Shown: positions 48,774 to 53,820, counted from the stretch's first letter. The stretch: 64,000 bases of DNA from an uncultured Caulobacteraceae bacterium (GCA_964242625.1 CAXTAO010000007.1:7484-71483); one strand, 5' to 3'. The notes: a model not told the origin generated them from the sequence alone. Made by a program: numbers and translations.

Positions 48774-49970
48774 TCAGGCTTCGTACCAGACTGGACGGGG
48801 AAGCGGATTCAGCGCGCGTATGCGCTGCAGCACCTGGGGCGTGAGCGAGCCCGGAGCGTAGCTTCGGTCGCTGAGGAGGCGGATCTTGGCTGAGGTCGAG
48901 ACCTCGTCGGGGTCGGTGGGGCCCGTCCGCCACTTGGCGCCAAACGCGCGCAACGCGAGCGAGCCGAGGTCGAGCGGTTCGGCGTCGAATTCGGCGTCCG
49001 GGTCGGCCTTCTGCGCGAACCATTGCACCTGGGCGGCGTCCAGCGTCAGCCCGGCGCGCGCCGCGCCCTCGGCTATCCACAGGAGCGGGGGATAGCTGAT
49101 GGGGCTCGCGCCCCCGCCGCCGACCGACCCGTGCCCTCCGGGAAACCACGCCTGCTGGTACGGTCGGCGCGCGTAGGGCAGGGCGGCGGCGCTCGCGTTG
49201 GTGTTGAGCTCGGCCACGTTGGTCCAGAGCGAGGGCACGAAGGTCGCGCGCTTCTCGTCCAGGGACACCGCGTGCCGCGCGGAACGCACGAAGCGCGACA
49301 GCGACAGGTCGTGGAAGGCGTACTGCTTGTCGACCGTGTCGGCGAACGGCAGGCCCGAGGGAATGCCGAGCGAGCCCACCGTGTCCCACACGCCGACGTA
49401 CTGGACCCAGGCGCACCGCTCGCGGTCCGGGGGGTCGAGCGAGCCGGGGTCGGCGGGATCGTAGGCCTTGCCGTCGGTGAAGACGTCGCCGACGGGATAG
49501 CACCACAGGCTATAGAAGTGCTTCACGTCCGCGTCCCAGGCCGCCGCGCGCTGGGCGTCGGCGTCGGCCGCCGGGCGCGAGCGGTAGAGGTCGACCGCCT
49601 CGTCCACGCGGGCGGCCTCCTCGCGCCGCAGGATCCAGACCTGCCGCAGGAGGCCCGCGAGGCTGCGCACCGTGTAGGCGCCGCGACTGAAGCCGAACAG
49701 GAAGATGCGGTCGCCCGGCACGTAGTTCAGGCACAGGAATTCGTAGGCGCGCGCGATCTTGTAGTCCAAGCCTTTGCCGAACGCCCCGCCCAGGATGTGT
49801 ACGAGGTGATCGGCGGCGCCCTGCGCGACGCCGACCCCGTCGTCGTAGTAGATCAGTTGCGGGACGGCGCCCTGCGCCAACGTCGCGCGAGCCAGGCGCG
49901 CGACGTTGGTGGGATCGCGCTGGGTGAAGTTCTGCCAGCTACCGTCACAGAAGATGGCGATGTTCTTCAT
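48774..49970 (-). CDS. DUF2235 (Tle1-like) alpha/beta-hydrolase domain protein
   Basis: MKNIAIFCDGSWQN...YYDDGVG and FLFGFSRGAYTVRSLAGL (GxSxG nucleophile elbow) are typical of DUF2235. No signal peptide. Last gene of the tightly spaced minus-strand operon. Confidence 0.8.
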   Translation of the reverse strand: MKNIAIFCDGSWQNFTQRDPTNVARLARATLAQGAVPQLIYYDDGVGVAQGAADHLVHILGGAFGKGLDYKIARAYEFLCLNYVPGDRIFLFGFSRGAYTVRSLAGLLRQVWILRREEAARVDEAVDLYRSRPAADADAQRAAAWDADVKHFYSLWCYPVGDVFTDGKAYDPADPGSLDPPDRERCAWVQYVGVWDTVGSLGIPSGLPFADTVDKQYAFHDLSLSRFVRSARHAVSLDEKRATFVPSLWTNVAELNTNASAAALPYARRPYQQAWFPGGHGSVGGGGASPISYPPLLWIAEGAARAGLTLDAAQVQWFAQKADPDAEFDAEPLDLGSLALRAFGAKWRTGPTDPDEVSTSAKIRLLSDRSYAPGSLTPQVLQRIRALNPLPRPVWYEA

Positions 49971-49986
49971 CCAGGGCGGCGTCCTT

Positions 49987-51807: not shown

Positions 51808-51822
51808 GGGAGAGGCTCCTTT

Positions 51823-53820
51823 TCAGGCGGGGGCGTCCGCGGGGGCGGGCGCGTCGACGGGAGGGCTGGCGGGGGCGGCGGACGCGGGTGGGGCGTAGCC
51901 GGGGGCGTCCACGGGCGGCAGCACCGGCAGGCGCGAGCAGAACATCGCCACCACCTGCATGCCGTCCGCCGGGTAGGTGACGCCCACGCCGCCCGGTCCG
52001 GCCCGGCCGGCCACCCCCGCCAACGACAGGGGGCCGAGGCTCGCTGCGCCGCTCTGCAGGGCGCTGGCCGCCGCCGCCGACCAGCTGCCGGTGACCTGGA
52101 GGTTGCGCACGATCACGAGCGCGATCGGCAAGCCGAAGGTCGAGCCGCCGAGGTCCGAGCGGGGGGGCAGGAGGCCGCCGCGGCCCATGCCCGCGACGTA
52201 CCAGCCGGCGTCGTTCAGGAACGTCCCGTTCCACCAGGGCTGGCCGGCCTGCAGGTAGGCGAGCGTCACCATCTGGTGCTCGAGCGAGATCGTCACCGTG
52301 TCGGTCGGCGCGGCGGAGACTTCGGGCACCACCACCTGGGCGTTGGCGAAGACGCGCTGGGCGTCGAAGCGCGCGGGCATGTAGCCGCGTCGGAAGACGG
52401 CGGCTTCAAGTCGGGGCGTCTGGGCCGAGGCGGGGACGAGCGCGGCCAGCGGCGTCACACGCTCCGTGAGGGTGGTCGCCAGGGCCTCATGGGCGAAGCG
52501 GGAGCTGAACACCGGCGGGGGCTCCCGCGGAGGCCCCGTGGAAGAGGTGGGAGGGGGAGGCGAGGGCGCCGGATCGGTCGCCTGGGCGAACTCGCGCAGC
52601 CGCCAGAAGTCCGGACGCACGAAGATCGGCCGGCCCACCGGCCGGCCGCCATCGGAGGGTGGCGGTGGCGGTGGCGCCGTGTCGCTAGACGAGGCCTGGA
52701 AGCCGATCCAGTAGCTCTGCCCGGCGCCGTCCACGGGCCAGTCTCCCGGCATGCAAACGATCGGCTTGAGCGCGCCCGGCGGCCCGTAGCTCGCCTTGGC
52801 CGAAGCGATCTCGCCGGCGAGGCGCGACCAGGCGTCGGAGGCGGCGACGGCCGCGGGCTGGGCGGCGCCCACCGCCACCTCGTAGATCTGCGTCGCCGTG
52901 CCGTAGGAGGGGTCCTTCTGCAGCACCGCCGCGCTCGCGGGCGAGACCACGAACGGCGAGTCGAAATTGACCTCGAGCCAGGTCTGCAGCTGGGTCGGGT
53001 TGAGCACCCCGCCCTGCACGAGGTCGTTCGGCACCGCCACGCCCGCCGGCAGAAAGGCCAAGTCGCCGATGGCGGACGCGCCCGGATAGGCGGCGGCGAT
53101 CGCGTCGGCCAACCGCTGGCCGAGGATGCGCAGCATCTCGACCGACGGCGGGGGCGGGGGTTTGATCGCCGCGCCGTCCGCCTGCGTCCACCGCACCACG
53201 CCGTGCTGGAAGATCTGCTCCACCGCGCCGTCGTCCACGGGCGTCTCGTCGGCCACGGGGAAGCCCAGCTGTCCGCCGGCTCCGCCCGCCTTGAGCCAGG
53301 CCTGCCGGATCGCACCGCGCACCACCCACGCCCCCGTGTCGGCGGACCAGACGATGGAGGCGTCGGCGGCGAAGTCGTTGAAGTAGCCGCCGCCCGCCGT
53401 CGCCGTCTCGTCGGTGGTGGGGAAGCCCAGCGGGCTTGAGGGGCCGCCCGTGCCGCGCCAGCGCGCCGCGATGCCGCCGTGGGTGAAATGGGCCCCGGTG
53501 GCCTGCGTCCACCATAGGTCGTAGCCGTTCTGGAAGGCGTTGGTGTAGCCGCCGTTCGCCGTCCCGGTCTCATCGGAACACGGATAGCCGAGCGGCCCCG
53601 CAGGCCCGCCCAGCTCTTCCCAGTGCGCGCGGATGCCGCCATGCACGAACCAGGCCCCGCTCGCGGCAGACCAGTAGAGCGCATAGCCCGTGTCGAACAC
53701 GACGCCCGCGCCGCCCGCGGGCTGGTCGAGCCGCACGTCCACGGGCGAACCCAGCAGGCCCTGCGCTCCGCCCAGGGCGGCGTAGCGATCCGACAGCGGC
53801 CCGGCGGGAACGTCTGGCAT
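51823..53820 (-). CDS. LGFP-repeat protein with a large unknown C-terminal region
   Basis: Four N-terminal repeats of about 50 aa, each ending LGSP/LGYP/LGFP/LGFP with conserved G.I...W...GG. A poly-Pro linker (KPPPPPS) follows, then about 450 aa with no match I recognise. No signal peptide. Confidence 0.8.
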   Translation of the reverse strand: MPDVPAGPLSDRYAALGGAQGLLGSPVDVRLDQPAGGAGVVFDTGYALYWSAASGAWFVHGGIRAHWEELGGPAGPLGYPCSDETGTANGGYTNAFQNGYDLWWTQATGAHFTHGGIAARWRGTGGPSSPLGFPTTDETATAGGGYFNDFAADASIVWSADTGAWVVRGAIRQAWLKAGGAGGQLGFPVADETPVDDGAVEQIFQHGVVRWTQADGAAIKPPPPPSVEMLRILGQRLADAIAAAYPGASAIGDLAFLPAGVAVPNDLVQGGVLNPTQLQTWLEVNFDSPFVVSPASAAVLQKDPSYGTATQIYEVAVGAAQPAAVAASDAWSRLAGEIASAKASYGPPGALKPIVCMPGDWPVDGAGQSYWIGFQASSSDTAPPPPPPSDGGRPVGRPIFVRPDFWRLREFAQATDPAPSPPPPTSSTGPPREPPPVFSSRFAHEALATTLTERVTPLAALVPASAQTPRLEAAVFRRGYMPARFDAQRVFANAQVVVPEVSAAPTDTVTISLEHQMVTLAYLQAGQPWWNGTFLNDAGWYVAGMGRGGLLPPRSDLGGSTFGLPIALVIVRNLQVTGSWSAAAASALQSGAASLGPLSLAGVAGRAGPGGVGVTYPADGMQVVAMFCSRLPVLPPVDAPGYAPPASAAPASPPVDAPAPADAPA

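Follow-up and report, generated by a model that had tools for sequence, protein, structure and literature searches.

A widespread pair of related hypothetical proteins, encoded in a Caulobacteraceae bacterium together with LGFP repeats and a DUF2235 hydrolase, may form a membrane-breaching complex

The window, i.e. the whole stretch of 64,000 nucleotides analysed here, comes from an uncultured Caulobacteraceae bacterium and contains three minus-strand genes, A, B and C (Table 1), with gaps of 15 nt (A-B) and 16 nt (B-C) according to the ORF coordinates. The sequence-only reading had described this close spacing and a Shine-Dalgarno sequence for each gene; the ORF positions were found to be exact and the motifs could be located, the start codon of A being preceded by a G-run. 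Judging from the spacing, the three genes are presumably co-transcribed as one operon on the chromosome of a diderm host, as which the bacterium is recognised by a TonB-dependent receptor gene in the window. Gene B is less G+C-rich than the surrounding genes (64–67% versus 71–75%), as had been remarked, which reflects amino acid composition and not foreign origin, because its GC1 is 0.57 but its GC3 is 0.93, like that of the neighbouring genes. The same-strand ORF ending 56 nt upstream of A, a candidate LuxR-type regulator, has no Pfam match at E ≤ 0.001. Weak relatives of it adjoin the pair of genes A and B at L019, with an E of 3.4e-6 and a position directly upstream of B, and at L017, with an E of 1.2e-11, and this regulator may be part of the module; elsewhere, the regulators adjoining the pair are MalT-like (Rhizobiales) or of the BTAD/SARP type (Streptomyces).

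Table 1. Features of the A-B-C operon and its flanking genes, with positions counted from the first nucleotide of the window
Feature	Position	Strand	Remarks
GntR/FCD regulator	47959-48729	divergent	Next gene beyond the end of C (48774)
Gene C	48774-49970	(-)	398 aa; DUF2235/Tle1-like alpha/beta hydrolase
GFSRGA nucleophile elbow of C	49677-49694	(-)	Ser95 codon 49686-49688; motif position computed
Shine-Dalgarno AAGGA	49982-49986	(-)	11 nt before ATG of C; sequence read
Gene B	49987-51807	(-)	606 aa; member of a highly conserved family without annotation
C-terminal beta-domain of B	50083-50622	(-)	B residues ~396-575; common with A
Shine-Dalgarno AAGGAG	51816-51821	(-)	8 nt before ATG of B; sequence read
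Gene A	51823-53820	(-)	665 aa; four N-terminal LGFP repeats fused to A-family core
C-terminal beta-domain of A	51886-52323	(-)	A residues ~500-645; homologous to B C-terminus
N-terminal alpha/beta domain of A family	52666-53148	(-)	A residues ~225-385
LGFP repeat region of A	53176-53799	(-)	Predicted cell-wall-binding module; ~residues 8-215; Pfam PF08310
Candidate regulator ORF	53877-54902	(-)	LuxR-type helix-turn-helix C-terminus, assigned by eye

The product of gene C matches Pfam family PF09994 (T6SS_Tle1-like_cat) with residues 2–300, covering profile positions 1–285 of 287 (E 3.8e-70; 236.9 bits against a cut-off of 27). All motifs previously quoted for it were found, namely FCDGSWQN at residue 7, YYDDGVG at residue 41 and GFSRGA at residue 93, and the protein also contains WDTVG (Asp196) and GGHGSVGGG (His280). 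Ser95, Asp196 and His280 align with the homologue from a like operon of Streptomyces sanyensis (locus L021), so that C is a DUF2235 hydrolase in which the Ser-Asp-His set is intact, and probably a lipase or esterase. Among the 20 other window ORFs scanned, none belongs to a T6SS family such as VgrG, Hcp or PAAR, and no periplasmic immunity gene of the Tli1 type is adjacent, as the neighbour past C encodes the GntR/FCD regulator and the gaps separating A, B and C harbour no small ORF; both absences agree with the sequence-only reading. As predicted from its sequence, C would act like a Tle1-type lipase, while its role is probably not that of a T6SS effector.

The protein encoded by gene A starts with four LGFP stretches (E 4.6e-46; 155.4 bits against the Pfam cut-off of 22), which are predicted to bind the cell wall and which match the cell-wall-binding part of endolysin family phrog_2998 in PHROGs (E 9.8e-27). 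LGFP is mainly an actinobacterial wall-binding module. Among the loci carrying the pair it recurs either fused to A, as also in L029, P0160 and P0159, or as a separate gene, while the combination of LGFP with the gene order A before B is a rare variant found in the window and L029. The core of A (residues 223–665; 443 aa) has 27 homologues besides itself in a search of 5.8 billion proteins, and the A family comprises 637 cluster representatives at 50% identity in a library of 1.84 billion (E ≤ 1e-3). The N-terminal alpha/beta domain of this family, modelled by AlphaFold with a pLDDT of 85–92, has no PDB or Pfam match; its invariant residues include C134, P136, D138, W139, Y148 and W149 (numbered in the 443-aa core).

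Gene B belongs to a family of more than 150 homologues (more than 150 clusters at 90% identity) sharing 42–65% identity over the full length, all of which are recorded as 'hypothetical' and none of which has a Pfam domain; across phyla, the identity to B amounts to 58–65%. The earlier statement that the two large proteins resemble nothing known beyond LGFP was borne out, as A and B have no match in Pfam, NCBIfam, PADLOC or PDB sequences, and in PHROGs the LGFP repeats of A are the only hit. The two are related to each other, and their earlier description as paralogues holds in so far as this relatedness is real, being detected by BLASTP (E 6e-7 over 80 aa), by hhalign (probability 93.9%, E 1.6e-7 over 144 columns) and in a joint alignment (A5), but it is confined to the C-terminal domain of ~150 aa. 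This domain contains three strands of 17–18 residues in the AlphaFold model of A. B possesses two Ser/Gly-rich, low-charge, low-confidence segments, one (residues 493–531) inside the C-terminal beta-domain and the other (residues 336–396) just N-terminal of it, with no clear alternating hydrophobic pattern.

For both AlphaFold models, the top Foldseek matches are bacterial gasdermins, but at non-significant levels (E 0.07–0.24, probability ≤ 0.33, TM ≤ 0.23). The matched structures are 7n52 for B, the model of which is of moderate confidence (pLDDT 61), and 7n50, 7n51 and 7n52 for the 443-aa core of A, whose whole-model match list contains several gasdermin pore structures further down. The gasdermin Pfam models have no match to A or B at E ≤ 0.1, and the profiles A1, A3 and A5 have none to PDB chains at E ≤ 10. 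A membrane-inserting partner, as suggested from sequence, may be envisaged, with the non-significant gasdermin signal as the sole structural hint.

In each of the 64 informative loci the B and A genes stand side by side (B→A in 62 and A→B in 2), and no informative locus is without A. The loci belong to Pseudomonadota, Acidobacteriota, Eremiobacterota, Actinomycetota and Cyanobacteriota and include two megaplasmids; the distribution is patchy and horizontally transferred, and the pair is absent from all 50,697 phage records searched. In the window, the two genes stand next to each other on one strand, encode the common C-terminal domain and score 928 bits with the B profile and 511–556 bits with the A profiles. 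A DUF2235 gene accompanies the pair only in the window and in S. sanyensis L021 (2/64 informative loci), so that conservation of the trio, which had been considered as a neighbourhood, is nearly absent. The conserved unit is the B+A pair, a widespread pair of related proteins never described before, with DUF2235 as one optional cargo. What stands of the proposed undescribed toxin/effector module is the tight operon and the idea of several envelope-directed components, which fits the comparative data, but not the trio as its unit.

The accessory enzymes of the pair are interchangeable and chiefly peptidoglycan-degrading. The Pfam families most often represented in the 114 same-strand neighbours are PG_binding_1 (6), Glucosaminidase (4), Peptidase_M23 (4), Hemopexin (3) and Muramidase (2), together with Phage_lysozyme, GH25, LGFP, Tle1-like and alpha/beta hydrolases; overall, the loci contain signal-less peptidoglycan hydrolases (GH73, M23, GH108, muramidase, GH24 and GH25), other lipid hydrolases and wall-binding domains. 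The pair is directly followed by a GH108 lysozyme on Paraburkholderia pBC201, and GH108 homologues lie 2–6 kb from it in three metagenomic loci, while a GDPD phosphodiesterase comes after it in Luteipulveratus and a papain-like protease (Peptidase_C70) at L034/L067, a cyanobacterial locus. Streptomyces shows the strongest association with wall enzymes, its loci, which are of common ancestry, having three or four wall hydrolases and LGFP around the pair. Many proteobacterial loci have no recognisable hydrolase adjoining the pair, and the window cassette contains no muralytic enzyme, C being a predicted lipase.

Hydropathy agrees with the previous finding that A, B and C have no N-terminal signal peptide, and none of them contains a transmembrane segment (highest 19-residue Kyte-Doolittle mean, 1.37). 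By reading of the N-termini, the listed accessory enzymes have no signal peptide either, except for a hydrophobic PASTA protein in L032. Neither a small membrane holin nor an immunity-like or export gene is conserved adjoining the pair, and no protease or sensor is conserved across the loci, the cyanobacterial locus being the sole case of a protease. As the hosts comprise both monoderms and diderms, no lineage-specific secretion system can serve as a common route.

The preferred reading, to which a probability of about 0.4 is assigned, is that B and A form a membrane-breaching complex by which the wall and membranes become accessible to co-expressed envelope hydrolases, in a holin-less lysis or release cassette or a binary toxin. 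B and A would be made soluble in the cytoplasm and co-assemble into this complex, possibly a gasdermin-like beta-sheet pore of two paralogues, which would replace the holin and through which the co-expressed enzymes would reach the peptidoglycan and membranes. A would be anchored to the wall by LGFP, lipase C would act on membrane lipid, presumably of the outer membrane if the host is a diderm, and the producer would be lysed or its contents released, with a switch that would be transcriptional, e.g. the adjacent LuxR-type regulator. The constant pairing of B and A, the envelope enzymes around them, the missing conventional export route, the gasdermin hint and the adjoining regulators speak for this reading. 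Against it stand the non-significance of the gasdermin matches, the absence of a gasdermin Pfam hit, the lack of a clear alternating hydrophobic pattern in the Ser/Gly-rich segments of B, the moderate confidence of the B model and the many proteobacterial loci with no recognisable hydrolase. As regards self-lysis, a gene whose product destroys its own cell should be rare or unstable, whereas B retains 58–65% identity across phyla, and LGFP in a diderm is explained at least equally well by an attack on foreign walls.

The comparative facts are identical for an antibacterial binary toxin acting from outside, which is regarded as doubtful, where LGFP-bearing A would bind the target wall, B together with A would permeabilise the membrane, and hydrolases and lipases would open the way or finish the kill, after release by producer lysis, vesicles or another route, with the wall being bound by LGFP or other partners. 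LGFP is typical of Actinomycetota and their phage endolysins, yet the hosts of the window and L029 are diderms, which points to a foreign target; the Streptomyces loci are flanked by regulators characteristic of antibiotic clusters, namely BTAD/SARP; and the pair is patchy and present on megaplasmids, like competition genes. The missing immunity gene would be needless if the target belonged to another phylum. Against this reading, neither a signal peptide on A, B and C of the window or on the accessory enzymes, as read from the N-termini, nor a conserved export gene adjoining the pair was found. Known secreted beta-pore-forming toxins almost always have Sec signals, and the conservation of B is unusually high for a toxin.

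That same conservation across phyla would suit a structural or remodelling function in the envelope without lysis, where B and A form a scaffold, either cytoplasmic or associated with the membrane, that organises or regulates wall hydrolases, e.g. in growth, development or wall recycling, and make no pores; so would the lack of an immunity gene, the many loci without an obvious toxin-like neighbour and the lack of a match to known toxin families. Such a role is improbable, as the patchy, horizontally transferred distribution, including megaplasmids, is unlike that of a core function, and the partner enzymes are of endolysin-type families without export signals, so that the wall would be out of their reach by normal routes, while lipase and GDPD partners are ill-suited to wall remodelling.

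Still less credence is given to phage defence or regulated cell death, in which, as with bacterial gasdermins, infection would trigger a membrane breach and the cell would die before phage release. The non-significant gasdermin-like top matches, the MalT-like STAND-type protein conserved upstream of the pair in Rhizobiales, the Peptidase_C70 of L034/L067 and a two-paralogue architecture recalling fungal RCD-1-1/RCD-1-2 (PMC11760362) point in this direction, but PADLOC gives nothing for A, B and C, the protease or sensor is not conserved across loci, the genes scanned around the trio are devoted to housekeeping and polysaccharide use and form no defence island, and an abortive-infection effector would need no wall hydrolases and lipases. 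Finally, an orphan T6SS effector, i.e. C as a Tle1 phospholipase serving a T6SS encoded elsewhere with A and B as adaptors or unrelated neighbours, is very improbable despite the strong PF09994 match, the diderm host and a DUF2235 literature dealing almost wholly with T6SS, because A and B are found in monoderms and diderms, mostly without DUF2235, and thus are not T6SS adaptors, while no VgrG, Hcp, PAAR or immunity-like gene occurs among the scanned window ORFs or adjacent to C, and the sole other locus combining the pair with DUF2235 belongs to Streptomyces, a group not known to have a T6SS.

The A and B families have no model in Pfam, NCBIfam or PADLOC and no solved relative, and all their records are 'hypothetical'. 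If the pair breaches membranes, as in the preferred reading, it would represent a new means by which bacteria lyse cells or pass folded enzymes without signal peptides through the cytoplasmic membrane, to be set alongside holins, bacterial gasdermins and type 10 secretion. Bacteria might in that case also have gasdermin-like proteins that act as hetero-pairs, for which fungal RCD-1 is the example known so far. The locus also sets DUF2235 lipases apart from T6SS, providing a context for the many DUF2235 genes of T6SS-less bacteria, and the accessory genes amount to a collection of enzymes degrading walls and membranes which may be mined for antibacterials.

Compared with known systems, C is similar to the Tle1/DUF2235 effectors of T6SS in its full catalytic domain, GxSxG elbow and Asp and His positions, but it has neither a T6SS context nor a neighbouring immunity lipoprotein, is translationally linked to a gene pair also present in Actinomycetota, and has its lone same-operon counterpart in Streptomyces. 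Type 10 secretion systems derive from holin-endolysin(-spanin/LysB) lysis cassettes (PMC10847048, PMC10109510). The pair loci resemble these cassettes in combining signal-less GH108, GH24, GH25, GH73 and M23 enzymes with a conserved non-enzymatic component, as well as wall-binding LGFP, SH3 and PG_binding_1, lipid hydrolases and adjacent regulators; however, the pair consists of two soluble proteins of 420–670 aa without a transmembrane helix, in place of a small transmembrane holin, does not occur in the 50,697 phage records, and is accompanied in the window by a lipase and no muralytic enzyme.

Like two-component beta-pore-forming toxins (MACPF/CDC-like, aerolysin-type), A and B are co-encoded and related, A with its LGFP repeats being a possible targeting subunit, and Ser/Gly-rich, low-charge segments flank long beta-strands in B. 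They differ from these toxins in having no Pfam match to MACPF, CDC, aerolysin or ETX/MTX2, no such fold among their top 50 Foldseek matches and no signal peptides. With bacterial gasdermins (7n50, 7n51 and 7n52; bioRxiv 10.1101/2021.06.07.447441), the pair has in common soluble, cytoplasmic proteins without signal peptides and, in the models, a domain of long beta-strands, but A and B exceed gasdermins two- to threefold in size, with extra N-terminal domains, the structural likeness is non-significant, no sequence match exists, and an adjacent protease is present at one cyanobacterial locus only. Fungal RCD-1-1/RCD-1-2 (PMC11760362) are alike in being two paralogues always together with no conserved protease, whereas the RCD-1 partners are alleles in different individuals and not genes of one operon. 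Tentatively, B and A may constitute a new class, a two-component, gasdermin-like, cytoplasm-acting holin substitute used as a lysis/release system or weapon and spread horizontally over five phyla, of which LGFP-bearing A together with the DUF2235 lipase would be the diderm-adapted form.

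The conserved unit, as judged from homologous loci, is the pair formed by B and A, two of the three minus-strand genes of the operon. B has more than 150 full-length homologues (42-65% identity), every one annotated as 'hypothetical' and none with a Pfam domain, which occur in Pseudomonadota (Caulobacterales, Sphingomicrobium, Rhizobium, Mesorhizobium, Neorhizobium, Collimonas, Burkholderia and Paraburkholderia), in Acidobacteriaceae, Eremiobacterota and an oscillatorian cyanobacterium, and in Streptomyces, Kitasatospora, Cellulomonas, Microbacterium, Luteipulveratus, Mycobacteriales and Frankiaceae. 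The closest is from a Caulobacteraceae metagenome-assembled genome (65% identity), two copies are borne on megaplasmids, and phage records contain no copy of the pair. In a comparison of 31 reference-genome and 47 metagenome loci, a few of which are one contig present in both collections, the ORFs were screened using B and A-core profiles, and an A-family gene adjoins B in all 64 informative loci. In 62 of these, B comes before A, usually with a spacing of ~5-20 nt, while A precedes B only in the window and in an Acidobacteriaceae metagenome-assembled genome (L029), in both of which A has LGFP repeats in its N-terminal part; two cluster representatives (P0159 and P0160) are further LGFP-A fusions. 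The A family comprises 637 representatives at E ≤ 1e-3 in a library of 1.84 billion proteins. Monoderms and diderms alike share this strictly conserved paralogue pair, which has no export signal, by horizontal transfer. The trio, whose conservation had been set as a check on the sequence-only reading, fares differently, as DUF2235 accompanies the pair in two loci only, the window and Streptomyces sanyensis (L021).

The N-terminus of A contains four LGFP repeats (E = 4.6e-46, Pfam), which are genuine by sequence, and to this region the PHROGs match is confined. The proposed paralogy of A and B stands for the C-terminal domain (BLASTP E = 6e-7; hhalign probability 93.9%, E = 1.6e-7), where the joint alignment is convincing, and falls elsewhere in the two proteins. 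B and the core of A were rightly described as unlike anything recognised, since they have no match in Pfam, NCBIfam or PADLOC, the latter two of which add no annotation for A, B or C. Likewise, the PDB gave no match by sequence or by profiles of the homologues (A1, A3) and of the shared domain (A5), and no publication on the pair was found in the literature. The pair could not be assigned to any known family. Both proteins end in a conserved Pro-rich motif, followed, in them and in the homologues (A1, A3), by a Pro/Ala/Thr/Ser-rich tail of a few to ~85 residues; this end region may serve as a linker or be a site of processing.

A, B and C lie where they had been placed by the earlier reading, with intergenic gaps of 15 and 16 nt, and the Shine-Dalgarno sequences claimed are present (AAGGAG 8 nt 5' of the ATG of B; AAGGA 11 nt 5' of that of C). 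No terminator-like sites were found between them on the coding strand, and this arrangement points to a tight operon. C, in which DUF2235 and a GFSRGA elbow had been noticed, contains a complete PF09994 Tle1-like catalytic domain (residues 2-300; E = 3.8e-70, Pfam) retaining this elbow (Ser95) together with WDTVG (Asp196) and GGHGSVGGG (His280), and is identified by these features as a DUF2235 member. All three proteins are indeed devoid of signal peptides, and no transmembrane segments were found in them. The lower G+C content noted for B is genuine and arises from its amino-acid composition (GC1 0.57); as its GC3 (0.93) matches that of the adjoining genes, a foreign origin of B was rejected.

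Features of the operon, its surroundings and selected homologous loci
Feature	Sequence	Position	Strand	Remark
A	window	51823-53820	-	665-aa ORF
B	window	49987-51807	-	606-aa ORF
C	window	48774-49970	-	398-aa ORF
Pro-rich motif and tail of A	window	51823-51885		LPVLPPxDxP
Pro-rich motif and tail of B	window	49987-50082		IQPxAPxxDDP
ORF with LuxR-type HTH C-terminus	window	53877-54902	-	ends 56 nt upstream of A
Overlapping long ORF	window	54910-55713	-	
Overlapping long ORF	window	53959-55908	+	
G+C-rich region	window	53800-55900		76-79.5% G+C
Tyrosinase fusion	window	55723-57477	-	tyrosinase (PF00264), polyphenol-oxidase middle domain, DUF7868
Imperfect direct repeats	window	55734-55893		G+C-rich; 3' end of tyrosinase gene
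CheB methylesterase/CheR methyltransferase/PAS/HWE histidine kinase fusion	window	8907-12869	+	1320 aa
Stand-alone CheB-like gene	window	13893-15032	+	follows the fusion
Plant-polysaccharide-use cluster	window	24909-29088, 36569-39160, 41457-47934		GH127, GH67, DUF5703, GH53, TonB-dependent receptor, GH2
GntR/FCD regulator of the cluster	window	47959-48729		
RibD-like and GTP cyclohydrolase II genes	window	58507-60244	+	~4.7 kb from operon
RibD_C and GTP cyclohydrolase II genes	L090	6022-7427		~0.6 kb upstream of B, one small gene between
B, A, B-like fragment, Peptidase_C70	L034/L067	1-4002		Oscillatoriales
Two small proteins	L087	5866-6981		5' of B; Microbacterium

The window (G+C ~72%) looks like an ordinary alphaproteobacterial chromosome, encoding GH2, GH53, GH67 and GH127 glycosidases, an MFS transporter, the CheB-CheR-PAS-HWE kinase, riboflavin genes, a tyrosinase and a TonB-dependent outer-membrane receptor, from which the host is deduced to be diderm. 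Assignment of the host is based on this receptor, an HWE kinase, the G+C content and the best B homologue (Caulobacteraceae, 65% identity). A mobile-element or genomic-island setting is not indicated: there is neither a tRNA gene nor any meaningful flanking repeat. The polysaccharide cluster directly abuts the operon. On the other side, gene calls are ambiguous in the G+C-rich region, where only the LuxR-like C-terminus is recognisable. Riboflavin genes also lie near the pair in an unrelated metagenomic locus (L090), which is probably a coincidence.

The genes accompanying the pair elsewhere vary from clade to clade around a common theme. In S. sanyensis, a BTAD regulator, an SH3-domain protein, a 381-aa protein without assignment, B and A are followed by a hemopexin and glucosaminidase protein, DUF2235 and a PG_binding_1 and M23 peptidase protein, and other Streptomyces have this core plus stand-alone LGFP proteins or another alpha/beta hydrolase. 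B and A are followed by a glucosaminidase in S. sioyaensis, by a GH108 lysozyme on Paraburkholderia pBC201 and by a GDPD phosphodiesterase in Luteipulveratus, while a GH108 homologue lies 2-6 kb from the pair in three metagenomic loci. When 114 same-strand neighbours were scanned blindly with Pfam, the top-ranking families were PG_binding_1, Glucosaminidase, Peptidase_M23, Hemopexin and Muramidase; Phage_lysozyme, GH25, LGFP and lipases were also present. Inspection of the N-termini of the accessory proteins by eye revealed no signal peptides. In numerous proteobacterial loci, the pair is accompanied only by genes of no assigned function. The accessory genes are interchangeable, the recognisable ones binding or degrading peptidoglycan or lipids. 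A conserved third gene was sought by neighbour clustering and rejected, as the clusters are clade-specific and none extends across clades.

Transcriptional regulators adjoin the pair. In Rhizobiales (L003/L004, L015, L016 and L036), the pair is immediately preceded by two conserved genes, for a MalT-like protein (~1056 aa) and for a protein without assignment (~150 aa), the smaller one occurring without its partner in L009 and L017; these could be a clade-specific sensor/regulator and a chaperone or immunity factor. The cyanobacterial locus (L034/L067) carries, 3' of B and A, a 124-aa fragment resembling the C-terminus of B and then a papain-like Peptidase_C70, an AvrRpt2-like cysteine protease and the sole protease adjoining the pair among the loci. 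Two small proteins without assignment (134-194 and 166-169 aa) precede B in the two Micrococcales loci, Luteipulveratus mongoliensis (L086) and Microbacterium (L087), the latter also encoding a 1371-aa protein without assignment 3' of A.

Since wall hydrolases without signals need help to reach their substrate, and the hosts are too diverse for one lineage-specific secretion system, B and A would be the only conserved candidates for bringing the enzymes over the cytoplasmic membrane. We therefore favour, with a probability of roughly 0.4, a membrane-breaching pair that serves the co-encoded envelope enzymes. B and A would carry these enzymes across the cytoplasmic membrane, two large soluble paralogues standing in for a small holin. 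The window would hold a compact version, in which the LGFP repeats on A bind the wall and the enzymatic part falls to the DUF2235 lipase, plausibly attacking the outer membrane. The main rival is a binary antibacterial toxin in which the same parts act from outside; LGFP repeats in a diderm host speak for it, but export signals are lacking throughout, and we consider it rather unlikely. It is less probable still that the pair forms a non-lytic scaffold, and phage defence is a yet more doubtful function for the module. That C is an orphan Tle1 effector of a type VI secretion system is very improbable, as the pair mostly occurs without DUF2235 and is also found in Actinomycetota, which are not known to have such a system, while the window, in keeping with the sequence-only reading, shows no T6SS family among the 20 other ORFs scanned and no VgrG, PAAR or immunity gene, so that both the defining context and a Tli1 gene are missing. 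The module would be a lysis or toxin cassette that breaches the envelope and is composed of new protein families, which are large and wholly unannotated; the genomic association is consistent, and the proposed mechanism lends itself to direct tests.

The AlphaFold model of B (40-sequence alignment; pLDDT 61, pTM 0.61) has helical hairpins in the N-terminal part and a long-stranded sheet in the C-terminal part. Just before and inside this sheet are Ser/Gly-rich, low-charge segments of low confidence (residues 336-396 and 493-531), whose composition is as in membrane hairpins, but which have no period-2 signal of an amphipathic beta-hairpin and no clear alternating hydrophobic pattern. For the A core (28 sequences; pLDDT 73, pTM 0.72), the model comprises an alpha/beta domain predicted with confidence at the N-terminal end, a Pro-rich linker that is disordered and, in the shared domain, three strands of 17-18 residues. 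Foldseek searches of both models against the PDB, and of A also against BFVD, returned nothing at E ≤ 0.001. The top matches for both, which are not significant, are bacterial gasdermins (B: 7n52, E = 0.17; A: 7n50, E = 0.069, 7n51 and 7n52), with GSDMB, a bacterial gasdermin, RCD-1, GSDME and Trichoplax pore structures lower in the list for A. As the TM-scores do not exceed 0.23 and neither sequence nor profile methods lend support, the gasdermin likeness of the models is a lead, not a result.

Among known systems, mycobacteriophages use lipolytic LysB enzymes against the mycomembrane, and the outer-membrane attack proposed for C may be likened to this. The module would follow the same logic as the holin-endolysin cassette or type 10 secretion (PMC10847048, PMC10109510), from which it differs in that the holin is missing. 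The pair is not placed among the gasdermins by sequence, and the structural scores are non-significant, yet two paralogues acting together would recall this group, above all RCD-1, which is a protease-independent two-partner system (PMC11760362).
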